In this document: piece after piece, positions 26,514 through 40,959 of the stretch | Numbering within the stretch: position 1 is the first letter of the stretch | Layout: the number at the start of each line of letters is the position of its first letter | Source of the DNA: Patescibacteria group bacterium UBA6241 | GTDB lineage: Bacteria; Patescibacteriota; Minisyncoccia; Phycocordibacterales; Phycocordibacteraceae | Direction of reading: 5' to 3' | Assembly (NCBI GenBank): GCA_002441425.1 | Contig: DJWB01000001.1 | Coordinates: 105,653-169,652, forward strand | DNA length: 64,000 bases | Notes under the pieces: model-generated | Told to the model about the DNA's origin: nothing | Seen by the model: only the letters and a program-made list of their open reading frames with translations | Database searches by the model: none | Position numbers and translations under genes: made by a program

Positions 26514-26584
26514 TGGGAGATCGTCTAATGGTAGGACAGCGGCCTTTGAAGCCGTGAATCTAGGTTCGATCCCTAGTCTCCCAG
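26514..26584 (+). tRNA. tRNA-Gln(TTG), anchor of the cassette array
   Basis: TGGGAGA/TCTCCCA acceptor stem, anticodon arm gcggc-ctTTGaa-gccgt, GGTTCGATCCC. Confidence 0.95.
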
Positions 26585-26683
26585 CAATAAGAAAGCTCAA
26601 ATAACAAAGCCCCACAACCGCATGATTGGGGGCTCCCGTGACGAAATCGGGCTACGTCTGCTTTTCTTACAGGGATTGAGGAC

Positions 26684-27169
26684 TCAGATGATCCCGTTGA
26701 GAATCTTTACGAGCTGGTCGATCGCTTCTCGCTGTTGGGCATCGTGAGTAACTTCGCAGAGGTCCAGCAAACTATCACAGCCTTCATCACATTGATGTGC
26801 TGAAAGGAACGCCTGACCGATGGCCTGCTTGCCACCGCTAATGCAAATCATGAAGTCACGAATCGGTTCGGAAACGTGGCTCATGACGTGAAGGCTGTAT
26901 CCGAAGGAATCCAGCAACTCTTCTGTGTTGATCGTGACCTCCGTGCCCATTTGCCTGCCAGCATTCTTAGCGGCTGCACCGATTGCATTCTTTACTCTGC
27001 CGACCACGTTCTGAATCAGTCTGGCTTGCTTATGTGCCAAACGTTCTTCATGTGACATCGAAAAAACCATTTCGAGATGAATATCAAGCAACATCGTAAC
27101 GTCCTTGGGAATGAGTTCAGCATCCCTACTGACTGCAGAAGTTGAACACTGCAGTTTGTCCGTGTGCAA
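26684..27169 (-). CDS. hypothetical protein (first cassette)
   Basis: 161 aa ORF; TTGACA promoter next to repeat R1; hairpin at 26608-26634. Confidence 0.65.
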   Translation of the reverse strand: MHTDKLQCSTSAVSRDAELIPKDVTMLLDIHLEMVFSMSHEERLAHKQARLIQNVVGRVKNAIGAAAKNAGRQMGTEVTINTEELLDSFGYSLHVMSHVSEPIRDFMICISGGKQAIGQAFLSAHQCDEGCDSLLDLCEVTHDAQQREAIDQLVKILNGII

Positions 27170-27204
27170 TATGCTTTATTTATATAGATATGTCAAGTAT
27201 AAAA

Positions 27205-27231
27205 GTTCCAACATCGTCCCATACCCCCAGC
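27205..27231 (+). repeat. cassette repeat R1
   Basis: gttccaacatcgtcccatacccccagc. Confidence 0.95.
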
Positions 27232-27248
27232 CAATGTATACTCGTGGT

Positions 27249-27578
27249 ATGCCAACAGCTAACATCTATTTCAGTGGTCAGGATAATGTTGAGGCACTTC
27301 AGGCTCTTATTCCTGACCTTAAGACGTATCTCGCACAGGAACTTTCTTGCAGCGACATTTCCCTCACATCAGAAGAGATTAGCATTCGATTTATTACAAA
27401 TACCGGCCCCAATATGATTGGCGATGTAGAGGTTCAGATATCGGCCCATTCATTCCCAGAACGCATTCAAAAGCAGGATCAAGTATGTCTCGACGTAATG
27501 AAATGGCTCCAAGATCGAACTGAGGTAAAGAACATTAAGGTCTGGCTTCAGCTCTCTAAGCTAGGACATAGTTGGTAG
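27249..27578 (+). CDS. hypothetical protein, possible tautomerase/MIF fold
   Basis: Met-Pro start, 109 aa; TATACT just upstream of ATG. Confidence 0.55.
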   Translation: MPTANIYFSGQDNVEALQALIPDLKTYLAQELSCSDISLTSEEISIRFITNTGPNMIGDVEVQISAHSFPERIQKQDQVCLDVMKWLQDRTEVKNIKVWLQLSKLGHSW

Positions 27579-27654
27579 GTTCGTTAATCTTAAGCAGTTT
27601 CGTGCAGATTTGACATAGTAAGTTTTAGTGATAAAAATCATTCGGAGGTGCGAA

Positions 27655-28020
27655 ATGGCAACAATCCTTATTGTCGAAGATACGCCGCTATACCAGCGAG
27701 GGTATCAAAGGGAGCTCGCAGAGCATACCTTGATCATCGCAGGGACTTCGGCTGTCGCCCGGGCTGAATTCGCCCGAATGCAGCATACGATCGATATCAT
27801 CATCCTCGATGGTGAGCTCGCTTCGATGGACCCCGAACGGGACACTGTCGATATGGCGAGCGACTTCCGTGCCGCAGGCTTTACGGGTCCGATGATCGCT
27901 GCGAGCAGCAACCCGTACATCATGAACCAGCTCATGGAGAAGAATCGGTGCTCGCACCGAGCCAGCCCCAAGTCTGATGTCCAAGACCTGGTCAACCAGA
28001 TCCTCGAGAACCGCCCTTAA
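27655..28020 (+). CDS. stand-alone response regulator receiver domain
   Basis: ILIVED...IIILDG...MIAASS...K; GGAGG RBS. Confidence 0.8.
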   Translation: MATILIVEDTPLYQRGYQRELAEHTLIIAGTSAVARAEFARMQHTIDIIILDGELASMDPERDTVDMASDFRAAGFTGPMIAASSNPYIMNQLMEKNRCSHRASPKSDVQDLVNQILENRP

Positions 28021-28056
28021 CCGAGCGGTTTTTCATTTACCGAAAGACTCAGAAGG

Positions 28057-28083
28057 GTTCCAACATCGTCCCAGACTGCCAGC
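28057..28083 (+). repeat. cassette repeat R2
   Basis: gttccaacatcgtcccagactgccagc. Confidence 0.95.
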
Positions 28084-28104
28084 AACTTTGGTACACTTAT
28101 TTGT

Positions 28105-28521
28105 ATGGAGAAAATAGACGAGCAAATTCTACTCACAGAGAGCTTTGATGTGCATCAGGATTGGGAAACCCCAATACCAGGATTTTATATAGTCGCATCG
28201 AGAGATCTCTCCAAAAAGTCTGTCGCAGATTTTACTGACGCTGAATCAGTTGAACTAGCGCTCCTTCTTAAGCGAGTAAGAAAAGCGATGAGTGAAGCTC
28301 TGGGTATAGAGGTTGTGTACTTTTTTGAGAACGAAGATACGGAGCATAGTTTTCATTTCTGGATGTTTCCACGACATGCATGGATGAATCAGTTTGGACC
28401 AAAGGTTCAGTCAATACGGCCAATTATTGAATTCGCTCGACAAACTATGGCAACTCAAGAAACTCTGGCTGAGGTTAAGGAGGCGGCAGAAAAGATGCGA
28501 CTTGTCCTAAAGGAGGGATAA
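28105..28521 (+). CDS. HIT-family hydrolase
   Basis: PIPGFYIV and HSFHFWMFPRH motif. Confidence 0.8.
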   Translation: MEKIDEQILLTESFDVHQDWETPIPGFYIVASRDLSKKSVADFTDAESVELALLLKRVRKAMSEALGIEVVYFFENEDTEHSFHFWMFPRHAWMNQFGPKVQSIRPIIEFARQTMATQETLAEVKEAAEKMRLVLKEG

Positions 28522-28526
28522 AATAG

Positions 28527-28553
28527 GTTCCAACATCGTCCCACACAGCCAGC
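28527..28553 (+). repeat. cassette repeat R3
   Basis: gttccaacatcgtcccacacagccagc. Confidence 0.95.
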
Positions 28554-28706
28554 ATTATTGACAAGCATGTTTATTGTTTGTATTGTACAAACTTAGTTCT
28601 TTGAACACGTTCGCCACAACGCAGGGCACCCTATTTTTAGGATTCTGTGCGCTGTGGCGAATCTGAGATCAGGTTTGTTTGAACGGCGCTGTAAAACCAC
28701 TCAGCA

Positions 28707-29165
28707 ATGGAGTTTCCTATGAGTGAACAACAGTCCTTCCGCGGTCAGGTGGATCGCATGCTGGGACAAATCGTCACCCACGGTCGCCATCTCGAAGGAT
28801 GGACGTCTGAGGATCGGCAGTGGGTGATCGAATATCCGGTTCCGGCCCTCATACTCTTCGCGAAGGCGGTCAGAGAGCGGGATTCAATTCGGGAACCAAA
28901 GCCCGGTGCGGTCGACCTCCTGATCAAGGACGTCTTCACTGTTGAGAAGGCGGGACAGATTGGATCCACGAGTAATGCCAACGCTCGGGTTCTCAATCTG
29001 ACGGAAGAACGTCCGCTCGGTGCCCTTGGGCCGATCAAGACACTCGGCGAGCTAGCCGGGTACCGAGAGAACGTTTTGAGACACGAGCCTAATATGGGAG
29101 ACCAGACCATCTCCTACATCAAGGCCGTCTTGGCAGAGCATGGTCTCAGTTTAAGTTCGCAATAA
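28707..29165 (+). CDS. protein with RNA polymerase alpha-CTD-like domain
   Basis: C-terminal IKTLGELAGYRENVLRHEPNMGDQTISYIKAVLAEHGLSL fits alpha-CTD pattern. Confidence 0.65.
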   Translation: MEFPMSEQQSFRGQVDRMLGQIVTHGRHLEGWTSEDRQWVIEYPVPALILFAKAVRERDSIREPKPGAVDLLIKDVFTVEKAGQIGSTSNANARVLNLTEERPLGALGPIKTLGELAGYRENVLRHEPNMGDQTISYIKAVLAEHGLSLSSQ

Positions 29166-29222
29166 GATCATCATGGGCTGTCTGTTTCCGAAAGGGAATG
29201 GCGGCCCTTTTACTTAATAAAA

Positions 29223-29249
29223 GTTCCAACATCGTCCCACACACCCAGC
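29223..29249 (+). repeat. cassette repeat R4
   Basis: gttccaacatcgtcccacacacccagc. Confidence 0.95.
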
Positions 29250-29284
29250 TATAAAAAAACCGCCCACGGCTCTTGAGGCGGTTG

Positions 29285-29626
29285 TTACGGCTTGGTCAGT
29301 TCTTCAAGAACGATATCGAGGACCGTTGTTCTCAGCCATTTCTCGAAAGTGGCTGGGTTAAAAAGGTAAGTCGGTTCTATATTGCCGGGCTCGATCTTCC
29401 TTGAAATGGTTGTTCGTGTCCAGATACCCATCATGCCGTTGGCAGGGAAGTAAACCAGAGATAAACAGAACCAAGGATGTCCTTCCCTTGTTCCCTCTAT
29501 GTCATACCGGAGGTAGTACTTTTCCTTTTCGTTACCGGACTCTATCTCAACATCGCAACATAGAGGCTCTGCGAAGTGAGACAAAATAGTCAGAAGCGAG
29601 TCAGGACCTTCAAGATCTGTCGTCAT
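29285..29626 (-). CDS. hypothetical protein
   Basis: AGGAG RBS before ATG 29626; terminator-like hairpin 29254-29283. Confidence 0.65.
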   Translation of the reverse strand: MTTDLEGPDSLLTILSHFAEPLCCDVEIESGNEKEKYYLRYDIEGTREGHPWFCLSLVYFPANGMMGIWTRTTISRKIEPGNIEPTYLFNPATFEKWLRTTVLDIVLEELTKP

Positions 29627-29677
29627 GTGCGACTCCTGTAGCGAATCTAGACAGAACCTACCACATGCTGAAGAAAG

Positions 29678-29704
29678 GTTCCAACATCGTCCCACACAGC
29701 CAGC
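29678..29704 (+). repeat. cassette repeat R5
   Basis: gttccaacatcgtcccacacagccagc (identical to R3, R6). Confidence 0.95.
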
Positions 29705-29724
29705 AGAGGTTGTATAATAGTTGC

Positions 29725-30120
29725 ATGAAGAATTCTTTTGGAATGAGGCCTCCTGCTAGGAACGAGCGCCCAGTTTCTGAAGCAAGAGAAATAACCCCAG
29801 CCCAGGTTCCTGATTTCGTTAAATCAGAGTTTAAGAGACTGAGAGATCAAATACTCCAAGAATCCGATGGCGCAGAACTGAAGGATAAGAAAGGATTGGT
29901 GGAGAATCTAGAAGATGGGGTCGAGCGTTATATTTTAGTTAATGAATTGCGAGACTCAGATACCCGGGCACATACTCAAGCCAGCCCATTTATGAATTTG
30001 ACTCCAAGCGGAACGTATAAGGAAATACACATGATTGTGGACGTAAAGAACGGAACTATAACTAAGTCCGAAATGAATAGAAACCCCGATCCCTCATGGT
30101 TCTCTATGAGGTATAGCTAA
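29725..30120 (+). CDS. hypothetical protein
   Basis: TATAAT just upstream of ATG; stop 4 nt before R6. Confidence 0.7.
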   Translation: MKNSFGMRPPARNERPVSEAREITPAQVPDFVKSEFKRLRDQILQESDGAELKDKKGLVENLEDGVERYILVNELRDSDTRAHTQASPFMNLTPSGTYKEIHMIVDVKNGTITKSEMNRNPDPSWFSMRYS

Positions 30121-30124
30121 GAAG

Positions 30125-30151
30125 GTTCCAACATCGTCCCACACAGCCAGC
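30125..30151 (+). repeat. cassette repeat R6
   Basis: gttccaacatcgtcccacacagccagc. Confidence 0.95.
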
Positions 30152-30172
30152 AACGAATGCTACACTTTTGTC

Positions 30173-30631
30173 ATGCGAACTGTTGAACGAGAGATCGCCT
30201 CTGCGCTCATCTTCTCAAAAGACGGGAAGCTCCTGCAGGTTAAGAATGCTGAACCTGTGCACGGAGTGTATGGAGAATGTTGGGTTATACCTGGCGGCGG
30301 TCTCGAAGAGGGAGAGACAGTGGAAGAGGCCGTGGTACGCGAAGTGATGGAGGAAGTCGGTCTAGATATCTCTTCTTCTCCGAAGGAATTAGTATGGACA
30401 GGCAACGGGGAATCGACCCGGATCCTCAAAGATACGGGCGAGGAGGTGCTCGTAAAGATGCGCTTCAACAACTTTAAAGTTCAGCTTGAAGAGAACGCAG
30501 AAGATATCCAGCTTACGTTTGGTGACGAACACCATGTGCATATATGGACCGATGTATCTGAGCTGAAGAACATGAGCCTCTCTCGACCATCTATAGAATG
30601 CCTGACTGAGCTTGGTTATTTACCGAGCTGA
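30173..30631 (+). CDS. NUDIX hydrolase
   Basis: Nudix box GGGLEEGETVEEAVVREVMEEVG. Confidence 0.92.
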   Translation: MRTVEREIASALIFSKDGKLLQVKNAEPVHGVYGECWVIPGGGLEEGETVEEAVVREVMEEVGLDISSSPKELVWTGNGESTRILKDTGEEVLVKMRFNNFKVQLEENAEDIQLTFGDEHHVHIWTDVSELKNMSLSRPSIECLTELGYLPS

Positions 30632-30636
30632 TTCTG

Positions 30637-30663
30637 GTTCCAACATCGTCCCAGACTGCCAGC
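30637..30663 (+). repeat. cassette repeat R7
   Basis: gttccaacatcgtcccagactgccagc (identical to R2). Confidence 0.95.
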
Positions 30664-30685
30664 CATCTATGTTAGGATTGGTTGA

Positions 30686-31018
30686 ATGAATAAGAATGGA
30701 TCGACTCGAGCTTGGTTCGTCATGTTTAGTCTGACAGCTATTGCTCTTGCAATCCCTCTCACAAATCTCAGCCTCTTACTTTCTGGAATATATAACGAGC
30801 CCGGGTATTCAGATGGAACTGTTTCGAGCCCAACCGAGATAGCATTCCTAACTGTTGCCATACTCGTGCCAATTGGAGTGACGGTTAGTGTGATTATGAC
30901 TCAGTGGAAGCGCTCTGTGGCATGGGGTGTGCTTGGTGTAATGATCTCATTTGCTCCTGTGCTTCTAGCAGCAATTATTGCGGCCGCTGCTATCATCTCT
31001 CGGGCTCTGTTCTCTTGA
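30686..31018 (+). CDS. three-TM membrane hypothetical protein
   Basis: Three hydrophobic segments; fills R7-R8 interval. Confidence 0.7.
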   Translation: MNKNGSTRAWFVMFSLTAIALAIPLTNLSLLLSGIYNEPGYSDGTVSSPTEIAFLTVAILVPIGVTVSVIMTQWKRSVAWGVLGVMISFAPVLLAAIIAAAAIISRALFS

Positions 31019-31026
31019 GTGTAAGG

Positions 31027-31053
31027 GTTTCAACATCGTCCCACACCCCCAGC
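31027..31053 (+). repeat. cassette repeat R8
   Basis: gtttcaacatcgtcccacacccccagc. Confidence 0.93.
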
Positions 31054-31119
31054 CTGTAAGAGAAAACCCGCCAACAACTAAGAGACGGGAATCTCATTGT
31101 TGCAGCGGGTCGCGTTTGT

Positions 31120-31503
31120 TTAGTAGATATGAGGTGCGACGAAATAGCGGATGGACACGCGGCCTTGCTCGCCCGGTTCGTCGATCGTGATGATGACGTT
31201 GTCTTTCCAGACAGAGCGCAGCACCTCAACTGCTGCCGCAACCTGTTTGTAGTTGCGGAGGCCAGGGAGGTTGTAGCCGTAGCGGTCTGAGTACTTTCCG
31301 TACATCAAAAGCACCTCGATGACCTGCTGCTCCCTGACGAATCGGCGCAGGCTGGTGTTCTCTGGAGGAATGGCCTCCAGAAGGGCAGTTGCGAGTCTCG
31401 CTTCAGCCTCAGCCTGATCTTGTCGTTGTCGCTCGAACTCAGAGAGAGTGCGGATTCGATCGCTCAGCGCTGACGCTAAACGAAAAGGATCGAGATTGTT
31501 CAC
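31120..31503 (-). CDS. hypothetical protein
   Basis: GGGAG RBS, GTG start, TTGACT promoter next to R9; hairpin near 31065-31111. Confidence 0.65.
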   Translation of the reverse strand: MNNLDPFRLASALSDRIRTLSEFERQRQDQAEAEARLATALLEAIPPENTSLRRFVREQQVIEVLLMYGKYSDRYGYNLPGLRNYKQVAAAVEVLRSVWKDNVIITIDEPGEQGRVSIRYFVAPHIY

Positions 31504-31575
31504 GGTTCTTCTCCCAATAACCTAGTGAGGAATATACTATTTAAATTCTATTTAGTCAACAGATCCTGCAGAAAG

Positions 31576-31602
31576 GTTCCAACATCGTCCCAGACAGCAA
31601 AC
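31576..31602 (+). repeat. cassette repeat R9
   Basis: gttccaacatcgtcccagacagcaaac. Confidence 0.93.
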
Positions 31603-31627
31603 ACTAAAGAATGCCATAATCAGTAAT

Positions 31628-32077
31628 ATGTATTACATATACAAAGAAATGCAGCCAGGCGAACAAGAAATAGTTCGTGGGATGATACATAGTTTTTACG
31701 CAACCGATCCAGATATGGGCGCAATAACAGACGAGAAGATTAATCGTACTTTTAGTGAGTTTTCAAAGCATCCAGAGAAAGGTTTTGTATATGTAATAAA
31801 GGACGACCAACAGATTGTTGGCTACAGCATACTTGTGAACTTTTGGAGCAATGAGGCGGGAGGAAATATCATTGATATTGACGAGTTGTTCGTAGAAGAG
31901 AGCGAGCGAGGAAAGGGAGTGGGAACAAATTTCATTAAGCACATTATAGAAAGTCGTCTGAACGAATGTGTCGCTGTTGAACTAGGGGTCATAGCAGGGA
32001 ATGACAGAGCACAAAGACTTTATGAGCGAATAGGGTTTAGGCTCTCCACTAACCGTCGCCTAATATATGATTTCTAA
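31628..32077 (+). CDS. GNAT acetyltransferase
   Basis: IDELFVEESERGKGVG, N..AQRLYERIGF. Confidence 0.9.
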   Translation: MYYIYKEMQPGEQEIVRGMIHSFYATDPDMGAITDEKINRTFSEFSKHPEKGFVYVIKDDQQIVGYSILVNFWSNEAGGNIIDIDELFVEESERGKGVGTNFIKHIIESRLNECVAVELGVIAGNDRAQRLYERIGFRLSTNRRLIYDF

Positions 32078-32087
32078 CCTGACTAGG

Positions 32088-32114
32088 TTTCTAACAACGT
32101 CTCAGACTGCCAGC
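32088..32114 (+). repeat. cassette repeat R10 (diverged)
   Basis: tttctaacaacgtctcagactgccagc. Confidence 0.85.
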
Positions 32115-32135
32115 TAATTTTGATACACTTCTTGC

Positions 32136-32810
32136 ATGAATTCTGTACTTATAACTGGAGCAGGCAGAGGAATAGGCAAAGAACTGTCTCTGAGATTTCT
32201 CGGTGCTGGGTATCGGGTGTGGGGAACTACAACATCGGGAGATGCTGATTTCTCGCACGAGAATCTTCAAATGCTACAGCTCGATCTCCGTTCACCAGAG
32301 AGCATAAAGACATGCGTGCAGGAATTAATTAGTTCCGGCGAACGATTCGATATTGCAGTTAACAATGCAGGGGCGCTCCTTGATGAGAACGAAAAGACCC
32401 TCAAGACAGATCTCCTACGCCAAACACTAGAGATAAACCTTATTGGAACTTCGGATTTTACAGAGCAAGTTTTACCTCTTGTGAATAAAGGAGGGCACAT
32501 TGTTATGGTGTCGTCTTCTGCTGGATCAGTTGGAAGGACTGGCAATGTAGTAAGCCGATATCCATCACAGTATCCCGCGTACAAGATCTCAAAGGCTGCA
32601 CTTAACATGTATATGCGTACACTTGCCGTTCGATTGAAGGATAAGGACATTACGGTGTCTTCTGTCCATCCTGGATGGGCCAGGACTGATATGGGAGGTG
32701 AAGAGGCATCAATCTCAGCGGAGGAAGCTGCCGACACTGTTTACAAGGTAGCCATATCTAGACCAGAGACTGGTCACTTCTGGTATTCAGAAGGAGAATT
32801 GCCTTGGTAG
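32136..32810 (+). CDS. short-chain dehydrogenase/reductase
   Basis: TGAGRGIG, NNAG, YKISK, VHPGW. Confidence 0.93.
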   Translation: MNSVLITGAGRGIGKELSLRFLGAGYRVWGTTTSGDADFSHENLQMLQLDLRSPESIKTCVQELISSGERFDIAVNNAGALLDENEKTLKTDLLRQTLEINLIGTSDFTEQVLPLVNKGGHIVMVSSSAGSVGRTGNVVSRYPSQYPAYKISKAALNMYMRTLAVRLKDKDITVSSVHPGWARTDMGGEEASISAEEAADTVYKVAISRPETGHFWYSEGELPW

Positions 32811-32813
32811 AAA

Positions 32814-32840
32814 GTTCCAACGTCGTTCTAGGCCGTCAGC
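32814..32840 (+). repeat. cassette repeat R11 (diverged)
   Basis: gttccaacgtcgttctaggccgtcagc. Confidence 0.8.
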
Positions 32841-32867
32841 TCATAAAATTCATGCTAAATTTCTCTC

Positions 32868-33413
32868 ATGATTAAAATCACTTACTTTGTCCACGGAACA
32901 ACTGTAGACAATCAGAATGAGATCTCCTCCGGCTGGTCTGACGCCCCTCTATCCGAGTTAGGTATTCAGCAGTCAAAAGATCTTAAGGAGCAAACTAAGG
33001 ATAAGCATTTTGATGTAGTGTTTTGTTCTGACCTGCAACGCGCTCGCATGTCTGCAGAACTTGCTTGGGGCAGTATGTACGAGATTATTCCCGATGCTCG
33101 TCTTCGTGAATGTAACTATGGCGAGCTGAATGGAAGAGCATCTGAAATTGTAGAGCCGCTGCAAGAGAAGGAAATGCATTTCAAGGCATTTCCGGGTGGG
33201 GAGAGTTATGAGGATGTGAAGAATCGTGTTGCTGACTTCCTTGATTTCCTCAAAGAAAATTATGATGGCAAGCACGTAGCGCTAGTGGGTCATAAGGCAC
33301 CCCAGCTTGCACTTGATGTCCTTATCAAAGGAGTAACCTGGGACGAGGCTCTCGCGAATGATTGGCGTAAGACTAAGTCTTGGAAACCAGGCTGGGAATA
33401 CCAACTAATCTAG
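32868..33413 (+). CDS. histidine phosphatase family protein
   Basis: FVHGTT, SDLQRA, RLRECNYG, GGES, LVGH. Confidence 0.88.
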   Translation: MIKITYFVHGTTVDNQNEISSGWSDAPLSELGIQQSKDLKEQTKDKHFDVVFCSDLQRARMSAELAWGSMYEIIPDARLRECNYGELNGRASEIVEPLQEKEMHFKAFPGGESYEDVKNRVADFLDFLKENYDGKHVALVGHKAPQLALDVLIKGVTWDEALANDWRKTKSWKPGWEYQLI

Positions 33414-33421
33414 TTAAACAG

Positions 33422-33448
33422 GTTCCAACATCGTCCCACACCCCCAGC
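33422..33448 (+). repeat. cassette repeat R12
   Basis: gttccaacatcgtcccacacccccagc. Confidence 0.95.
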
Positions 33449-33472
33449 CAATAAAATTGTTATAGTTTATGT

Positions 33473-34042
33473 ATGACTTATATTCTTCATGGAGGATTTG
33501 AACGGGAAGATAACGAGTTAAATAGAAGCTTCTATCAAGAAGTTCTGAAAGGCGTTTCTGATAATGGAACACTTCTTCTTGTTCACTTTGCTTCAACTCA
33601 CTCTCCAGAAGAGGTGAAAGAAACACACGAACTCCAGGAGAAAAGGATGCAAAGCCTTACGAACAAACATATAAATGTTGAGTTCGCGACCGAAGAAGAT
33701 TTCTTAAATCAAGTGGAGCACGCGGATGCAATTCACATGCGAGGAGGACATACACCGAAATTGCTTTCAGTCCTGAAAAACTATCCGGAACTTGCAGCTA
33801 TGTTCTCAAACAAAACTATTTCTGGATCTTCAGCCGGAGCTTATGCATTGGCAAAATATGGACCCGGGCATTCAGAAGAGGGAATACGTGAAGGTTTGGG
33901 TCTTGTTCCTATTAGATTGGCCTGTCATTACGAAAGTCTAGAGTTACCTCCTGATTCTGAGTCACTTACTGAACTTAAAGCTATGGCGACAGAACTGGAA
34001 CTTGTAACATTGAGAGATTTTGAGTGGCGCGTATTCAATTAA
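33473..34042 (+). CDS. peptidase E (S51) / class I glutamine amidotransferase-like
   Basis: HMRGGHT, GSSAGA, GLGLV, CHY. Confidence 0.8.
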   Translation: MTYILHGGFEREDNELNRSFYQEVLKGVSDNGTLLLVHFASTHSPEEVKETHELQEKRMQSLTNKHINVEFATEEDFLNQVEHADAIHMRGGHTPKLLSVLKNYPELAAMFSNKTISGSSAGAYALAKYGPGHSEEGIREGLGLVPIRLACHYESLELPPDSESLTELKAMATELELVTLRDFEWRVFN

Positions 34043-34043
34043 G

Positions 34044-34070
34044 GTTCCAACGTCATCTCACACCGCCAAC
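34044..34070 (+). repeat. cassette repeat R13 (diverged)
   Basis: gttccaacgtcatctcacaccgccaac. Confidence 0.85.
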
Positions 34071-34093
34071 AACTTCATGCTACGGTACTGAGT

Positions 34094-34546
34094 ATGAGAA
34101 GAGTTTCAGTAAGAGGTATCGCCCTACACGAAGGGAAACTTCTGTGCGTTAAATTGAAGCCGTATAACAAGATGGCTGCATCAGGAGGTGATTGGCGATG
34201 TCTTCCGGGAGGAACAGTTGAAGAAGGAGAATCATTGAATGTAGCTCTTATGCGGGAGATGTACGAGGAGACTGGCGTAAGTCCGGAAATAGGGAAACTA
34301 TTGTATGTTCATCAGTTTCTATTTGAGGAAAGTGACCAGCTTGAATTTTTCTTTCATATTGCTAATCCGGGTGACTATCTAGAAATAGACCTAGAGAACA
34401 CAACGCACGGATTACATGAGATCGAGAGTATTGATTTCGTAGACCCAAAAGAAACATTTATTCTCCCTATATTTCTTTCTCAGGAGACTTTAAAGAACCA
34501 AATCGAATCAAATGCACCGGTTAAAATATTTTCCTTTGCAAAGTAG
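34094..34546 (+). CDS. NUDIX hydrolase
   Basis: LPGGTVEEGESLNVALMREMYEETG. Confidence 0.92.
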   Translation: MRRVSVRGIALHEGKLLCVKLKPYNKMAASGGDWRCLPGGTVEEGESLNVALMREMYEETGVSPEIGKLLYVHQFLFEESDQLEFFFHIANPGDYLEIDLENTTHGLHEIESIDFVDPKETFILPIFLSQETLKNQIESNAPVKIFSFAK

Positions 34547-34568
34547 GTCAGAGGATGGTTAATAAAAA

Positions 34569-34595
34569 GTTCCAACATCGTCCCAGACTGGCAAC
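34569..34595 (+). repeat. cassette repeat R14
   Basis: gttccaacatcgtcccagactggcaac. Confidence 0.92.
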
Positions 34596-34641
34596 AAATA
34601 AAAACTGCCTAAAACCTTTCGGTCTTCGGCAGTTTGAGAGT

Positions 34642-34812
34642 TCATTCAGAATTGGCTGCGTCAGCTCTGCGTCGCTCGTCAGTCAATTCATCAAAATTTT
34701 TTGAGCTGAGTCGCCGATAGAGCGCATGCCGCTCATGTGGGTCTCTGTCTACATTGTTGGGGTGATCCAGAATTTCTTCAAGAGTTCTGAATCCTGAAGA
34801 TTGCTCGTGCAT
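34642..34812 (-). CDS. 56-aa small protein (not in ORF track)
   Basis: MHEQSSGFRTLEEILDHPNNVDRDPHERHALYRRLSSKNFDELTDERRRADAANSE; GGGAG RBS; hairpin aaactgcc...ggcagttt downstream. Confidence 0.55.
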   Translation of the reverse strand: MHEQSSGFRTLEEILDHPNNVDRDPHERHALYRRLSSKNFDELTDERRRADAANSE

Positions 34813-34859
34813 GAGATAGGTCTCCCTTCTGGACAGAACCTAACACGGACTGCATATAC

Positions 34860-34886
34860 GTTCGAGCGTCGCCCAATACTACTAGA
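34860..34886 (+). repeat. probable degenerate repeat R15
   Basis: gttcgagcgtcgcccaatactactaga; intergenic between divergent ORFs. Confidence 0.45.
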
Positions 34887-34958
34887 CATGAAAATGGACA
34901 AGGAGCTATTTTATTGTATGGTGCTAGCAGAGAGACAATTAGCCAGGAGGGCTAGCAG

Positions 34959-35708
34959 ATGTACCAACCAACACAGCCGCTACTGTTCTCCTGGATTCAT
35001 GAAGGTGAATACCCGGGAGGAGACTACACCTTTTTACACAGTAATGGCTCATATGTACGAATTGAGGACTGGAAGAAACGGTATAAGGACACAAAGGAGA
35101 AACCGGCTATCCCATTCAGATTCACCGTGCGTGACCGCACATTCATTGGCCACATAACCGACGAATGTCTGGTATCGCGCATAACTGAGTATCTGCAGGA
35201 TTACTACGGTAAGCGTTACACCAACTGCTCCGCGTTCGCTCACTTCCTGACTACCGGCACGTTTATAGAGTGCGACGAAGAACAGAGCCTCGTTGTGCTT
35301 ACGCAGGACATGGCTCAGTACCGAGGCGAGACTATTCGTGTCGGGGATATGCTTTGCGTAATCTATGCGAATGATCGCCTTTGGCGGTCTCGCAAGGTGT
35401 CGCACCGCAAAAGTTACTTGCGTGCCAAGAAGAAACGGAGAGGTACGCACGAGTTCACTCACGGGTTACCTCCAAGAAAGAGGATTCTCTCCGCGAAGGG
35501 TATCCGGGAACTCTGCGCGAGTGTTCTCGCTGATGATTATCACTTTCTTGTCTGCGTCGCTAAAGACGCCGCCGGGCCGGTATGGCTTGCTCAAGGTGGA
35601 CGCTACGCACCGGGTGACGAACCTAGTCCGCTGGTGTTCACGGTGGGGAACAATGATGGATACGATAATGTAGTACCTCTCCTTGCGCTCCTTAAAAGAC
35701 GTAGATGA
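34959..35708 (+). CDS. hypothetical protein
   Basis: 249 aa, AGGAGG RBS; TNCSAFAHF and DYHF may be a Cys/His pair; downstream hairpin. Confidence 0.65.
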   Translation: MYQPTQPLLFSWIHEGEYPGGDYTFLHSNGSYVRIEDWKKRYKDTKEKPAIPFRFTVRDRTFIGHITDECLVSRITEYLQDYYGKRYTNCSAFAHFLTTGTFIECDEEQSLVVLTQDMAQYRGETIRVGDMLCVIYANDRLWRSRKVSHRKSYLRAKKKRRGTHEFTHGLPPRKRILSAKGIRELCASVLADDYHFLVCVAKDAAGPVWLAQGGRYAPGDEPSPLVFTVGNNDGYDNVVPLLALLKRRR

Positions 35709-35763
35709 TCCCGGCTCTACACTTCAACGCCCGCGGCATTTATGTCGTGGGTGTTTCATTTTA

Positions 35764-35790
35764 AGTTCAGCATCGCTCCAGGCGGTCAGT
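35764..35790 (+). repeat. degenerate repeat R16
   Basis: agttcagcatcgctccaggcggtcagt; closest to R11; followed by TATACT and ATG like other cassettes. Confidence 0.6.
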
Positions 35791-35811: not shown

Positions 35812-36816
35812 ATGTCAGCAATAGAACTTGTAAGAGTCTCTACTCCGGAAGATTGGGAGCAATATCACAGCATTAGAGAAAAAGTTTTATTTGAGAACAA
35901 GAACCGGTCTTATGATCGGACTCATGCTGATGAACACCGGCCTAACAATGTGCCATTTCTGCTAAAGAAGGACGGACTAGGTATAGCGACCACAAGACTA
36001 GATCTTCGTCCTGACACCCAAGCGGCTATTATCCGTCTAGTTGCTGTAGTTGAGTCTGAGCAACGAAAAGGGTATGGACGTGCTCTACAAGCAAAAATAG
36101 ATGAATATGCACGTTCTCAAGGCGTAAAAAGGCTTCTCGTTAATGCTGCCCCCGATGCTATTGGTTTCTATAAAAAGATCGGTTTTGTGCCGGAATCGTG
36201 GGACCCAGAAGAACTCACAGGAATATCTAAGGATTCCGTTCAGTTGTCTAAAGCATTGTTACCCATGACTGAAAAGGAAATACTTGAGCTAATCAAGAAC
36301 GACGAGTGGATGATGTCTATTCTTAGGGTAGCTCGTAGCCTTAATCTGCCGGATTGGATAATTGGTGCAGGATTCGTAAGAAACAAAGTTTGGGATCATC
36401 TACACGGGTATACGGAACGCACCCCTTTAGCTGATATAGATTTGATTTACTTTGATCCAGCTCATATAGATGAGTCACAAGAAAAAGAGTATGACCAAAG
36501 GCTACATCAATTAGTTGATGTTCAATGGTCTACAAAGAATCAAGCACGCATGCATGTAATAAATGGAAACGCACCATTTACCTCTGCAGAAGACGGATTG
36601 GCGCATTGGATTGAAACTCCAACATGTACTGGAGTAACGTTGCTAGACAACGACACTCTGCAATTAATTGCACCCTACGGGATAGAGGACCTTGTGCACT
36701 TGCGAGTGAGACCAGTTAACCCAGAGAAAGATATTACGCTTTATAGAGAGCGGGTAACAAAAAAGAAATGGAAGGAAACTTGGCCAAGACTAGAAATCTT
36801 AGAGACCAGAGCATAA
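35812..36816 (+). CDS. GNAT acetyltransferase fused to DUF925-type nucleotidyltransferase
   Basis: N-half RLVAV..QRKGYG..AIGFYKKIGF; C-half LPDWIIGAGFVRNKVWD, DIDLIYFD, KNQARMH, APYG. Confidence 0.85.
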   Translation: MSAIELVRVSTPEDWEQYHSIREKVLFENKNRSYDRTHADEHRPNNVPFLLKKDGLGIATTRLDLRPDTQAAIIRLVAVVESEQRKGYGRALQAKIDEYARSQGVKRLLVNAAPDAIGFYKKIGFVPESWDPEELTGISKDSVQLSKALLPMTEKEILELIKNDEWMMSILRVARSLNLPDWIIGAGFVRNKVWDHLHGYTERTPLADIDLIYFDPAHIDESQEKEYDQRLHQLVDVQWSTKNQARMHVINGNAPFTSAEDGLAHWIETPTCTGVTLLDNDTLQLIAPYGIEDLVHLRVRPVNPEKDITLYRERVTKKKWKETWPRLEILETRA

Positions 36817-36832
36817 TCAGCGAGAACAAACT

Positions 36833-37132
36833 CTACTGCATACTTACTAGTATGAGCATGCTGATTGTTAGCACAGCAAATACCCCTAGTGTCTTTAAAA
36901 AGTAGGACACGGCTTCAGCTCTCCTATTTTCTATAAGCAGTGCAACTGGTTGATAGAAAAACAGGAAGGCCATAACAGCTACAGAGAGCACCAGCAGAGA
37001 AATTACTCCCACGCCGTCTAGAAATGTGTCTGGTGTGTCGTGACGAAGTGATTCAATAAACTGCATAAACAGCGCTATGGCGCTTATATACAGGGCTGCT
37101 GCTACTGCATTCAATACGGGATTCCATTTCAT
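36833..37132 (-). CDS. small membrane protein
   Basis: Three TM segments, 99 aa. Confidence 0.7.
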   Translation of the reverse strand: MKWNPVLNAVAAALYISAIALFMQFIESLRHDTPDTFLDGVGVISLLVLSVAVMAFLFFYQPVALLIENRRAEAVSYFLKTLGVFAVLTISMLILVSMQ

Positions 37133-37198
37133 ATAACTAGTATAACGGCGCAGCGCCTACCTTAGTTGCTTGCTGCTTGGCCGCGATATACTACACGC

Positions 37199-37630
37199 AT
37201 GAAAAAGGGAGAGGATTATGTGGGCGTTACCCTAAGCTTCTTCTGCCATGATGGAAAAGGAAACTTTATACTATCTAAACGCAGTGCAAATTGTCGTGAC
37301 GAGCACGGACGATGGGATTTCGGAGGAGGGGGATTAGATCTGCACGAGACAGTAGAAAATCAGCTACGCAGGGAAATAAAGGAGGAACTCTGTACGGATG
37401 TACTTGAATACGAGTTTCTCGGATATCGGGATGTGCACCGAGAGCATGAAGGAAAGAAGACACACTGGGTATCTTTGGACTTTAAAGTACTGATAGATCC
37501 TTCTCAGGTTAAGAATGGAGAGCCACACAAGTTTGATGAAATAGCATGGTTTAGACTGGACGCTCTTCCTGAGCCACTACATTCTCAGGCTCCTTTGGAG
37601 GTCGCCCTGTATAAGGCACAGCTTTCATAA
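37199..37630 (+). CDS. NUDIX hydrolase
   Basis: GGGGLDLHETVENQLRREIKEE; GEPHKF. Confidence 0.88.
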   Translation: MKKGEDYVGVTLSFFCHDGKGNFILSKRSANCRDEHGRWDFGGGGLDLHETVENQLRREIKEELCTDVLEYEFLGYRDVHREHEGKKTHWVSLDFKVLIDPSQVKNGEPHKFDEIAWFRLDALPEPLHSQAPLEVALYKAQLS

Positions 37631-37706
37631 GAGAATCTTGCAGAAATTGACTTTAATTTCTGCATCTATATAGTCAAAAAACCTAAAACACCGAGTCGGA
37701 GGGTTA

Positions 37707-38030
37707 ATGGTAGATGCTCTTTTAGTACTGGTGTATCTGGGCTTTGCGACCTCTGCGATATCAGTAACGCTTACGAGATCGGATATTACTCGCGAGCCGC
37801 GTCAGTGGCTCAAAGAGAAAGTCCCGTCTCTCGCAGGCCTTATTCATTGCCCATACTGCACTAGCCACTGGGTCGCCATGGTGCTTGTCCTGTTCTACAA
37901 GCCCGTTGTGGTTGACCTGTTTCTCCCCATTGATCTCGCCGTCTCCGTTATGGGCGTCGTAGGGATTGCCGGGGTCGTCTCAGGGATCTTGATTACAAAG
38001 ATCCCCTCGCTTGGAAGGAAGGAAGACTGA
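37707..38030 (+). CDS. membrane protein (DUF1360-like)
   Basis: TM helices with CPYCTSHWVA; GGAGG RBS. Confidence 0.65.
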   Translation: MVDALLVLVYLGFATSAISVTLTRSDITREPRQWLKEKVPSLAGLIHCPYCTSHWVAMVLVLFYKPVVVDLFLPIDLAVSVMGVVGIAGVVSGILITKIPSLGRKED

Positions 38031-38232
38031 AATGCCGAAATGGGTTCCGAGATGCCCGATCTTTTGGATGCTGGTCATCATCATCGCCGTGAGCATCGGC
38101 GTGTGGCGGTGTAGTTCCGGATAAGGGATAACTTCCCACGAATACTTTTTAAGCCGCCGGAAGAATTGGCGGCTTTTTACTTTGTGAACACAAATAAATC
38201 TTGCCGTTTAGTATGCGATATACTTTATTCAT

Positions 38233-38571
38233 ATGAAATTCTTTGTAACCTACCAAATGCCCCATACGGGAATGGACGAGTGGATGAAAATCCCAGAAGA
38301 AGAGCGAAAAGTACAAGAACAGCAAATGCAGTCTGAATGGAATGCGTGGATGGGAGACCACAAGGACTCGCTAACTGAAAGTGCTGGTGTTGGAAAACCA
38401 AAGCGAATCACCGCAAAGGGAACTGAAGACGCTCGCAACGACATTATGATGTACTCATTTGTTGAGGCCACTACGCTTGAAGAGGCAGCAGAGATATTTA
38501 AAGATCATCCACACTTTGGCATTCCAGGTGCGTGGATAGAAGTGATGTCCGTAAATAAGAATATCGGCTAA
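38233..38571 (+). CDS. YCII-like hypothetical protein
   Basis: YSFVEATTLEEAAEIFKDHPHF...IEV. Confidence 0.65.
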   Translation: MKFFVTYQMPHTGMDEWMKIPEEERKVQEQQMQSEWNAWMGDHKDSLTESAGVGKPKRITAKGTEDARNDIMMYSFVEATTLEEAAEIFKDHPHFGIPGAWIEVMSVNKNIG

Positions 38572-38587
38572 GTAGTAGCAGATACGC

Positions 38588-38935
38588 ATGTCCTACAAGT
38601 TAACGAAGTCTGCGGATCTTCCAAAGAAGGAGAAGTACGAAATGGAGATCCGTATCTTGCCTGAGATTGGGAATTGCAATGTCATTACCGCTGAAACAGA
38701 AACCGGACACAATCAGGAGTTTTATGACACTGAATCAACCTTCCACTACATCATAGTGAGCGGGTCCGGAAGCTTTTTCCTTGATGATAAGGAAGTCCCT
38801 GTTTCTGAAGGCGACTATCTTTCGATAGAACCAAAGACAAGAATCTATTACAAAGGCCGTATGCGTCTTGTGCTAATAACAAATCCTCCCTGGCGGCAGG
38901 AGAATGAGGTTGAGACAAGATCCAAGATTTGGTAA
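38588..38935 (+). CDS. cupin domain protein
   Basis: GHNQEFY...YIIVSGSG...GDYLSIEP. Confidence 0.75.
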   Translation: MSYKLTKSADLPKKEKYEMEIRILPEIGNCNVITAETETGHNQEFYDTESTFHYIIVSGSGSFFLDDKEVPVSEGDYLSIEPKTRIYYKGRMRLVLITNPPWRQENEVETRSKIW

Positions 38936-38942
38936 ACGGCGT

Positions 38943-39347
38943 ATGCAAAAACTACCCACAGAACTCGCTGCTCTACTAAGAAAGAATAAAGAGACTCAAG
39001 CAAGCTGGAGTTCACTTACTCCTATTGCCCAAAGAGATTTCATTACATGGATTAATTCTGCAAAGCAGGAGACAACTAGGATAAAGAGAGCTGAACGAGT
39101 TCCTGATATGTTGCGCTCAGGAAAGCGCCGCCCCTGCTGCTACGCAGTGGTGCCCATGGATCTTTATAGAGAACTAGGAGCAAATCCCAAGGCGAAAGCT
39201 ACATGGAAGACTCTCTCAGCCACAGAACGCAGAGACTTTAGCGATTGGGTAAGTACAGCTAGCAGTAAAGAGGATACCGAGCAAAGAGTTGAAAAAGTGA
39301 AGAAGCTTCTTATGCAAGGCAAAAAGAGCCTTGGAAGCAAGAAGTAG
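38943..39347 (+). CDS. YdeI/OmdA-family protein (two tandem domains)
   Basis: LP.EL..W.SLTP..RDFITWINSAKQETTR, repeated twice. Confidence 0.8.
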   Translation: MQKLPTELAALLRKNKETQASWSSLTPIAQRDFITWINSAKQETTRIKRAERVPDMLRSGKRRPCCYAVVPMDLYRELGANPKAKATWKTLSATERRDFSDWVSTASSKEDTEQRVEKVKKLLMQGKKSLGSKK

Positions 39348-39398
39348 CGCCTCTCAACAGACTCCTCATACCCACTTCACAAGGCGCATGAGATAGTT

Positions 39399-40061
39399 AT
39401 GAGACGTATGCAAACAAACCAAAGAAACATCCTGATTATAGGCGCTGTAGTTGCTGCTCTCATCCTTATCGGAGGGGGATGGTATCTAATTTCTAATGTA
39501 AACCCTCCTCCTTCAACAGATACCTCAACATTTAAGAGTAAGGCATTCTGGTTTGACTACCCAAGAATATTTGATGTACGTGAGTTTGAAACAGGTGCAG
39601 TACTCGTAGGCTCTCAAGAACGAAAGGAATTTGTCCCGTTGGTTCAAGTTATGGAGTACAAGAGTGATCCTGATTCACCACTACCCGCAAGCTACGAGGA
39701 GTTTGTAACGCAGCAAGCACTTGAACTTTGTGGGTCAGACAACTCGGAAGAGAGTGTTGAGTGTAGTACTCCTGTAGTTGAGCCGTTCACAAGCCTTAAT
39801 GCATTTGAGGGACTTAAAGTTACGCTTACTCTCACACGGACTAATCTAGAGACACAGGAATCTGTCGCATCAACCTTTGGTCCAATCTATGCATTTGATG
39901 TAACGAAGCCTGCAACAGCAGAGGATCCATTAAGATACACATCAATATTTGTGAACCCAACTCTTCAGGCAACTCTCTCAGGCACTGAAGTAACAGAGTT
40001 GCTTGATGCTGTTGTTGCAAGACTTGTTATAAGTAATGAAGACTCACAACTTCCACTCTAA
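39399..40061 (+). CDS. membrane-anchored hypothetical protein
   Basis: N-terminal TM, FWFDYP motif. Confidence 0.7.
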   Translation: MRRMQTNQRNILIIGAVVAALILIGGGWYLISNVNPPPSTDTSTFKSKAFWFDYPRIFDVREFETGAVLVGSQERKEFVPLVQVMEYKSDPDSPLPASYEEFVTQQALELCGSDNSEESVECSTPVVEPFTSLNAFEGLKVTLTLTRTNLETQESVASTFGPIYAFDVTKPATAEDPLRYTSIFVNPTLQATLSGTEVTELLDAVVARLVISNEDSQLPL

Positions 40062-40063
40062 CT

Positions 40064-40474
40064 ATGAAAGGATTCGTAACTAATATTGAGCACGAGACAG
40101 AGGAGAATAATAACTTTAGAAAGGTGCTCTACACTGCGCAGCATTGCCAGCTCGTTGTGATGTCAATTCCAGTATCAGAAGATATTGGAGCAGAAATACA
40201 CGATGTAGATCAGTTCATTCGTATTGAAGAAGGGGAAGGTACGAGCATACTAGACGGTGTTGAACGATCTCTCACCAAGGGCTCTGCGGTAGTTATTCCT
40301 GCAGGTGTACAGCACAACATCATAAATACTTCAGACACCAATGCACTCAAGCTATATAGCGTATATGCTCCCGCACATCATGAAGATGGAGTGATCCACA
40401 AAACAAAAGCTGAGGCACTTAAAGATGATGAACACTTTGACGGACACACTACTGATGCGCTAGAACAAGAGTAA
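40064..40474 (+). CDS. cupin domain protein
   Basis: [19 protein letters not shown]...[11 protein letters not shown]. Confidence 0.88.
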
Positions 40475-40959
40475 TGACATCTAAAGCCATTCTTGCTGGA
40501 GGCTGTTTCTGGGGCCTTGAGGAGCTGTTTAGGAGCCGTACAGGGGTGCTTGCTACCGAAGCCGGCTATACCGGAGGAGAGAATGAGAACCCTACATATG
40601 AGAACCACCCAGGCCATGCAGAGGCTCTGGAAATTACGTATGACCCTGAGCAGACCTCTTTCATAGAACTTTTGGATTTCTTTTTCTGCGTACACAATCC
40701 AACGACACTAAATCAACAAGGAAATGACATGGGAACCTCATACCGGTCTGCTATTTTCTATCAGAACGAAAAGGAGAAGAGAGAGGCAGCTGAGTTTATA
40801 CAAAGAGTAGATAACTCAGGAAGATGGGAGGATCCTGTAGTTACTACATTGGAACCATTCACCAAGTTCTATCCTGCAGAAGAGCCTCACCAGGACTACC
40901 TACAAAAGAATCCAGGAGGCTATACCTGCCATGCAGTGTATTTTGATTCATACCTGTAA
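40474..40959 (+). CDS. msrA: peptide methionine sulfoxide reductase A
   Basis: [29 protein letters not shown]. Confidence 0.95.

Follow-up and report, generated by a model that had tools for sequence, protein, structure and literature searches.

The window analysed here, a stretch of 64,000 nucleotides from the genome of Patescibacteria group bacterium UBA6241, contains directly behind a tRNA-Gln gene an array of 14 to 16 self-contained, mostly single-gene cassettes with a 27-bp repeat, designated L, between them. The locus is likely a gene collector of the integron kind, supplied by elements that visit the genome and not by a resident enzyme. That the repeat is an attachment arm of large serine recombinases (LSRs) is well supported, and most likely L represents the attP left arm of one particular LSR clade. 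We consider it probable that the cassettes entered as small circles that were inserted at the tRNA-Gln gene's 3' end by a visiting LSR of this clade.

The repeat array in the window

A first-pass annotation of the window had listed 14 intergenic copies of the repeat, all in the same orientation, and two degenerate ones. The 14 clear copies were confirmed on the plus strand behind tRNA-Gln(TTG), and the distances quoted from stop codons to the following repeat were correct. The genome to which the window belongs (G000, 686 kb, 98% complete) was scanned with a position weight matrix (PWM), by which the 14 repeats scored 26-52 bits; the maximum in three shuffles of the whole genome was 10-13 bits. 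The best other match in G000 reached 10 bits, so that no copy is present outside the array, as had been noted for the window. With every copy in one locus, a scatter near core genes as expected of transcription factor sites or REP-like elements is ruled out. The degenerate copies at 34860 and 35765 aligned with scores of 24 and 25 (control maximum 23 in 2195 windows) and are marginal by score alone. The former is independently supported by a 31-bp promoter block located at the exact spacing beside the repeat; the latter, previously placed at 35764, stays marginal. The unit length from repeat to repeat, annotated as 291-905 bp, was measured as 291-904 bp, and the spacers of 264-878 bp hold genes. 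Several repeats are spanned without differences by low-depth contigs from one sample that is possibly the source of the window (record 12, 27845-29685), which argues against misassembly.

The cassette genes are mutually unrelated and encode, according to Pfam, two NUDIX proteins, a GNAT protein, a short-chain dehydrogenase/reductase, a histidine phosphatase, an S51 peptidase, a weak receiver domain and orphans. Simple scans of the array for promoters and terminators did not exceed shuffled sequences (11 versus 12.6 and 9 versus 8.1, respectively); an excess was obtained solely with the test for the position of the -10 box given below. In the following list, repeats L1 to L14 were located by PWM, ORF denotes an open reading frame, and the 22-bp entry site is designated S; labels such as L112 and L384 in the text refer to loci in relatives or metagenomes.

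26514..26585, plus: tRNA-Gln(TTG), immediately 3' of dnaX (ARAGORN, Rfam)
26564..26585, plus: entry site S, 22 bp, attB-type left arm, identical with the tRNA 3' end
26582-26583: presumed crossover dinucleotide CA within S (from the geometry in PMC3783163)
26586..27204, minus: cassette 1, presumably the newest; ORF 27058-26684 (124 aa, no Pfam match), hairpin at left end, TTGACA promoter at right end
27205..27231, plus: repeat L1, 27 bp, attP-type left arm
27232..28056, plus: cassette 2, ORFs 27249-27578 (no Pfam match) and 27655-28020 (weak receiver domain)
28057..28083, plus: repeat L2, consensus copy
28084..28526, plus: cassette 3, ORF 28105-28521, -10 box just 5' of the ATG
28527..28553, plus: repeat L3
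28554..29222, plus: cassette 4, ORF ending at 29165, own -35/-10 promoter
29223..29249, plus: repeat L4
29250..29677, minus: cassette 5, reverse ORF 29626-29285, terminator-like hairpin at left end
29647..29677, minus: conserved 31-bp promoter block adjoining L5
29678..29704, plus: repeat L5
29705..30124, plus: cassette 6, ORF 29725-30120, no Pfam match
30125..30151, plus: repeat L6
30152..30636, plus: cassette 7, NUDIX hydrolase 30173-30631 (Pfam)
30637..30663, plus: repeat L7
30664..31026, plus: cassette 8, hydrophobic ORF 30686-31018, no Pfam match
31027..31053, plus: repeat L8
31054..31575, minus: cassette 9, reverse ORF 31503-31120
31576..31602, plus: repeat L9
31603..32087, plus: cassette 10, GNAT acetyltransferase 31628-32077
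32088..32114, plus: repeat L10, worn
32115..32813, plus: cassette 11, short-chain dehydrogenase 32136-32810
32814..32840, plus: repeat L11, worn
32841..33421, plus: cassette 12, histidine phosphatase 32868-33413
33422..33448, plus: repeat L12
33449..34043, plus: cassette 13, peptidase S51 33473-34042
34044..34070, plus: repeat L13, worn
34071..34568, plus: cassette 14, NUDIX hydrolase 34094-34546
34569..34595, plus: repeat L14
34596..34859, minus: cassette 15, reverse ORF 34812-34642 (56 aa), 31-bp promoter block 34829-34859
34860..34886, plus: degenerate repeat L15 (alignment, promoter block)
34887..35764, plus: cassette 16, ORF 34959-35708, 86% identical to a gene in an array of the related genome G022
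35765..35790, plus: degenerate repeat L16, marginal (alignment)

Past the last repeat, the region 35812-40959 contains more small genes with -10 boxes near the ATG, encoding a GNAT-nucleotidyltransferase fusion, a NUDIX protein, cupins, OmdA and MsrA, several of which are common to relatives. These genes are possibly old cassettes whose repeats were lost.

Probable attachment sites and recombinase elements in relatives

The L repeat was detected in 81 of the 259 genomes of the family, with no matches for the reversed control. A species-collection scan yielded 117 stretches with the repeat, which were titled Patescibacteria or just bacterium except for one contig labelled Gammaproteobacteria, and at least 145 further stretches were obtained from metagenomes. 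In the arrays the 22-bp site S comes first and the L repeats follow. S is either the 3' end of tRNA-Gln, from the T-loop to the discriminator plus one base, or a stand-alone near-copy. The upstream DNA was too short to judge the entry site in 98 of 211 de-duplicated arrays; 101 of the 113 judgeable ones begin with S and no S was found in 12. Since 68 of these entry sites are stand-alone copies and 33 are tRNA-Gln ends, entry is not confined to the tRNA. At no fewer than 16 core loci, at which G000 has no S, stand-alone copies lie at the end of a gene or close to it, in many cases in contact with the stop codon. In arrays with at least three repeats, the first outscores the last in 29 of 38 cases (p about 1e-4, kin not being independent), and more than 20 repeats are present in the related genome G020. 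The arrays are thus polar, with the entry site first and the distal repeats decayed, as in integrons.

Three side observations concern the entry sites. Behind tRNA-Gln in L067, L213, L217, L345, L384 and L387 lie short units of about 70-300 bp in tandem, which end in S, not L, and may be the route by which stand-alone S sites arise. In L086, L117 and L097, L repeats lie behind tRNA-Ala and one is located just 5' of tRNA-Lys, and S was not found; these loci are possible retargeted variants. In G000, contig C3 ends exactly with the CAGC of tRNA-Gln(CTG) (G000:C3:1-72) and contig C4 starts with CAGC (G000:C4:1-3450), followed by an AT-rich gene block that is closed by a different 22-bp site at 3428. 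This block perhaps represents a second family of Gln-targeting ends that is variable in the population.

A comparison of the two sites revealed an outer box, GTTC(C/G)A, and an inner box with CCAGC as its end, and L corresponds to S with 5 additional bp separating the boxes. Since the inner bases of S are not passed to L, the exchange takes place in or after CCAGC. Moreover, L384 is available as an empty and a filled locus, and the sequence that follows the empty site is found after L in the filled one, so that strand exchange is confined to the four bases CAGC. The cassette ends narrow the crossover to the same bases, within which we infer CA as the exact dinucleotide, a step finer than the L384 pair itself resolves. 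Counted from CA as the centre, the conserved stretch begins at position 19 of S and position 24 of L, the motif occupying 19-11 and 24-16, respectively. The zinc-ribbon (ZD) motif of the LI integrase is located at 11-19 in attB and 16-24 in attP (PMC3783163). The 5-bp outward shift of this motif from B to P arms is likewise found between S (22 bp) and L (27 bp), and the repeat, instead of being a site of unknown type, is most likely an LSR attP left arm.

The enzyme clade was identified from complete elements. When 194 loci were searched with an LSR profile, intact LSRs were detected in two cases, each time in the interval from a tRNA-Gln S to the first L, and 135 metagenome loci contributed five further ones. 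Among loci found by pattern, an LSR gene lies between the entry site and the first L in L095, L112, L344, L384 and L387, and before the first L with no S seen in L391 and L410. For a repeat-independent test, elements were chosen by protein similarity to the LSR of L112 and their flanks were checked afterwards. In a first batch, L509-L512 ended in an L-type site, L513 was truncated and L514, with a partial LSR, had no such site. Of 20 elements picked by protein, with five earlier targets left out, four stop at contig ends and all 16 with long flanks end in an L-type site 1.9-9.3 kb away. By contrast, no L-type end was seen for any of the 14 LSRs outside this similarity range, of which four had less than 8 kb of sequence. 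These autonomous elements of 2-9 kb consist of a tRNA 3' end or S, the LSR gene facing the tRNA, cargo and then L; the L112 element additionally encodes a Rep-type protein and AbiEii-type cargo. In clade elements located at tRNA-Ser, -Lys, -Trp and -Ile, the outer (left) part of L is retained, whereas the inner part is that of the respective tRNA end. In L543 and L548, clade LSRs are inserted in stand-alone S sites, which are therefore real targets.

The LSR of L112 and the database protein P0007 contain the resolvase, recombinase and zinc-ribbon domains PF00239, PF07508 and PF13408, and the best PDB matches of the clade are the SPbeta, Bxb1, phiC31 and LI integrases. This domain set was found for elements in relatives and not for the window. 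A quick tree, in which long branches were flagged, groups the L-ended elements apart from the two LSRs of G000. A clade LSR is encoded in 11 of the 259 family genomes, and 10 of these bear the repeat, in part because the element brings one.

Other candidates were rejected. The two LSRs of G000 (G000:C4:267872-269476 and 294797-296380) overlap the ends of tRNA-Glu(CTC) and tRNA-Asn, a location that is common for LSRs in the order (23 of 41 genomes); besides falling outside the clade, they had no matching right ends in a search with a 10-base motif. The presence of PF07508 alone (23 of 41 genomes) did not track the repeat, whereas the clade does. Tyrosine recombinases, present in 39 of 41 relatives, showed no co-occurrence with the repeat. 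In viral contigs, no relative of P0007 was found, and 34 matches to a 17-bp core of the repeat had neither array nor entry site and were dismissed as coding coincidence; those examined in context lie inside the reading frame of a methyltransferase-like gene in GC-rich prophages. The peptide WDDVGT of the LSR tail described below is also specified by the prophage methyltransferase-like genes of L031-L064, which was likewise taken as coincidence.

The site is at the same time coding sequence. The LSR gene faces the tRNA and crosses the site, and L read backwards specifies the last LSR residues (LAVWDDVGT). Joining the element ends in silico produced an in-frame tail, L(A/G/R)(V/L)WD(D/E)V(G/R)T followed by hydrophobic residues, in all six Gln-type elements and in 18 of 19 protein-picked elements, the exception being L511. 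Among natural database LSRs the tail is present in 2 of 73 by strict pattern (P0007 and P0010) and in about 9 of 73 by eye, and such natural proteins with the predicted circle-form tail suggest that unintegrated forms exist. In the frame of the tail, the differences among the 14 copies of the window comprise 27 silent and 15 other changes (ratio 0.19); the most variable positions are third codon positions, and two third positions are invariant. An AlphaFold model places a helix at the tail with a predicted local distance difference test score below 60 and was not counted as evidence. On the circle the LSR would thus end in LAVWDDVGT and a short hydrophobic stretch read from L, and after insertion in a tail read backwards from the tRNA. 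Such an exchange might switch the enzyme, and the att-coded tail offers a simple hypothesis for direction control.

Probable cassette mobility and competing explanations

The median length of 398 cassettes is 517 bp, and 91% are shorter than 1 kb. Among 361 cassettes of 150-1000 bp, the gene is in forward orientation in 191 and in reverse orientation in 142, and 28 are without an ORF. Forward genes stop within 12 nt of L in 58% of the cases. Of the forward cassettes, 110 have their start 12-45 nt into the cassette, and in 94 of these a TAnnnT box was detected 5-8 nt 5' of the ATG (17 expected from shuffling), a position of the -10 box from which leaderless transcription of the forward cassette genes is predicted. 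Additionally, a conserved 31-bp block abuts L on its left in 51 of the 398 cassettes, in 46 of them with exact spacing. On the minus strand it has the form of an extended -10 promoter with a sharp end about 7 nt past the box, and 46 unrelated protein families are located downstream of it. In 4 Mb, 61 of its 71 matches adjoin L and most of the others a worn L. The block may mark how reverse cassettes are made.

Comparison of 17 loci supported the proposal of site-specific gene capture that grows at the tRNA 3' end, in line with the polarity of the arrays: dnaX is located upstream in 14 of them (dnaX-tRNA-Gln), and the cassette content differs. Close homologues of window cassettes were found only in G022 (cassettes 10 and 16, 82-86%), in different order; cassette 10 shares 81% identity over 474 of 485 bp with a G022 cassette that has other neighbours. 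The protein of cassette 12 has an 89% identical counterpart in another repeat-bearing locus (L162). In six inspected cassette pairs, similarity begins at or a few bases from CAGC and ends at L, with differing neighbours. A 389-bp unit, 98.7% identical, stands after S in L096 and after the L of another cassette in L362, as expected if a newer unit had been inserted in front. The recurrence of whole cassettes at other ranks and loci supports their mobility as judged from sequence comparison. As a side observation, a 4.4-kb unit between two L repeats (L133:1579-5999) contains ORFs of 957 and 344 aa that resemble ribonucleotide reductase subunits by eye, a candidate for large cargo that would travel as well.

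In the mechanism that we propose, the enzyme would depend chiefly on reading the left arm, whose GTTC(C/G)A box is found at 19-11 of S and at 24-16 of L, and would accept nearly any AT-rich right arm. By such one-sided reading each insertion would rebuild a usable S and leave one L behind the cassette, older cassettes being pushed outward from the tRNA-Gln 3' end. Cassettes that lack an enzyme, measure about 0.5 kb and bring their own promoter would use the same sites in trans; single-gene cassettes likely move independently by means of an LSR encoded elsewhere. As G000 is without a cognate LSR, its array would change only when an element visits or DNA is taken up from relatives.

Several observations weigh against this mechanism. 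A clade LSR is missing (E<=1e-100) from 71 of the 81 repeat-bearing family genomes. None was found in G020, which has more than 20 repeats, or in G000, whose two LSRs fall outside the clade. Only 15 cassette pairs with matches at the DNA level were obtained from the 398 cassettes. Unlike canonical LSR sites, the sequence right of CAGC contains no mirrored ZD motif, with a weak AAT bias only; the left end of the element encodes LSR residues there, and one-sided recognition is consequently an assumption. The silent-change pattern of the coded tail may instead reflect positions that the enzyme does not read. Finally, the search for circles or cassette-skipping junctions that had been proposed for this strain revealed none, a weak test with contigs of depth 3-5 from one sample; candidate joints with sides of 24-33 bases could be traced to the repeat itself or to other organisms and were not counted.

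The missing enzyme, the unseen circles and the decay of the distal repeats would equally fit an array of mere scars, a graveyard of full LSR elements that lost their recombinase and replication genes, in which single-gene cassettes never moved. We regard this as unlikely, since the 194 loci contain no LSR remnant between repeats apart from intact elements and one fragment, and since the cassettes are so predominantly below 1 kb. Moreover, independent erosion would not reproduce an identical-ended short unit at different ranks, loci and genomes.

Arrays in genomes without a clade LSR would also be accounted for if the sites derived from LSRs while a resident enzyme, either the single Xer-like tyrosine recombinase, a type of enzyme that the relatives almost always encode, or an unrecognised protein, moved the cassettes. 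The Xer-like enzyme is equally present in repeat-less genomes, L keeps the LSR spacing, and the S and L sites are direct, unlike dif, the layout of which is palindromic; this explanation is therefore very improbable. We give similarly little credence to the view that the repeat serves in regulation or as a short stretch of homology and that homologous recombination following the uptake of DNA shuffles the cassettes, for which the repeated promoter cassettes in phage variable regions provide an analogue. Promoters beside the repeat and the 31-bp block fixed to L would agree with it, and conserved flanking genes would permit replacement of the whole array. The spacing from the repeat to the -10 box varies in forward cassettes, however, and the constant first position of S, the 5-bp offset, the association with LSRs and the coded tail are left unexplained. 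Homologous recombination may nevertheless contribute to cassette spread alongside the proposed insertion by a visiting LSR.

A wider interpretation, to which we assign slightly less than an even chance, sees the arrays as a serine-recombinase counterpart of the integron, with a lineage-wide pool of promoter-bearing single-gene cassettes, an LSR clade that reads one half-site only and thereby rebuilds its target, extra S copies maintained as landing pads at 16 or more loci after core-gene stop codons, and a 31-bp block that marks how unrelated genes become cassettes. Integron-like gene collection would then have arisen a second time with different chemistry, and a testable mechanism is provided for accessory gene gain in the streamlined genomes of the candidate phyla radiation. 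Since the enzyme clade, the sites and the crossover are named, the system can be rebuilt in a laboratory strain. If the reading is true, an integrase with a one-sided, regenerated 22-bp target and natural retargeting to tRNAs would be useful for iterative gene stacking.

Comparison with known systems

Integrons and CALINs (clusters of attC sites lacking integron-integrases) are polar arrays of unrelated single-gene cassettes with a distinct entry site and an enzyme that is often absent. These features, along with stop codons near the repeat, are shared by the arrays described here. Integrons employ the tyrosine recombinase IntI, hairpin attC sites and mostly promoterless cassettes read from the Pc promoter, whereas the present cassettes have their own promoters, 142 of 333 scored ones are reversed, and the chemistry is that of a serine recombinase. 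In agreement with the first-pass annotation, intI was not found in G000, the sole tyrosine recombinase being Xer-like (118 bits with the integron integrase model versus a cut-off of 265), and DNA folding of 8 of the 14 repeats together with their flanks, on the bottom strand only, gave no attC-type hairpin (z-scores -0.55 to +1.21). A clustered regularly interspaced short palindromic repeat (CRISPR) locus had rightly been excluded as well: G000 has no PF01867 (cas1) and no CRISPR RNA family in an Rfam scan, and the spacers hold genes.

The LSRs of the clade share catalytic, recombinase and zinc-ribbon domains as well as the 5-bp P/B shift with the large serine integrases of phages (LI/A118, SPbeta, Bxb1, phiC31). 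They differ in the missing mirrored right-arm motif, in the att site inside the integrase gene and in a product site that is apparently reusable as a target; no directionality factor was identified, no test aimed at one having been made. An att site within the integrase gene is also found in the Mx8 integrase. The same location is described for archaeal suicidal integrases, for which trans action by a related incoming element was proposed (PMC8371274). Those enzymes are tyrosine recombinases, whereas here only the last 10-30 residues of a serine recombinase are exchanged. Tycheposon islands grow at tRNAs, mostly with tyrosine recombinases (10.1101/2020.12.28.424599). The first-pass annotation had suggested a possibly undescribed system, and no description of such arrays in Patescibacteria was found in a literature search whose coverage left out most subscription papers; the enzyme class and the logic of tandem stacks have precedents.

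In the ssrA islands of Dehalococcoides, the serine integrase DsiB is associated with units stacked in tandem where an RNA gene has its 3' end, with short direct repeats between them; its gene lies on the reverse strand beside attL, overlaps the att site and is perhaps complete only on the circle, and some islands are without an integration module (PMC3146451). Tandem units in such a location and an LSR gene overlapping attL were also found here, DsiB being compared by its published description. The target differs, as it consists of tRNA-Gln and stand-alone mimics instead of ssrA. Furthermore, the units are single-gene cassettes of about 0.5 kb with their own promoters, the enzyme is absent from most host genomes, the internal repeat is a 5-bp-longer P arm and not a copy of the target, and several arrays occur per genome.

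Composites of the staphylococcal cassette chromosome (SCC) at rlmH are built by Ccr serine recombinases with the oldest unit outermost and internal att sites, and units lacking recombinase genes exist; the units measure 1-200 kb and composites make up 5.9% of the elements (PMC13739063). Serine recombinase, tandem integration, internal att sites and enzyme-less units are common to both systems. The clade employs one LSR gene instead of CcrAB at a target other than rlmH; its LSR scores 90 bits against a CcrB cut-off of 900, all of CcrA/B/C being far under cut-off, and up to 16 units are stacked in the array of the window. Accordingly, the array belongs with the serine-recombinase tandem stacks represented by ssrA islands and SCC composites, from which it is set apart by unit size, unit number, own promoters, extra entry sites and an enzyme that is usually absent.

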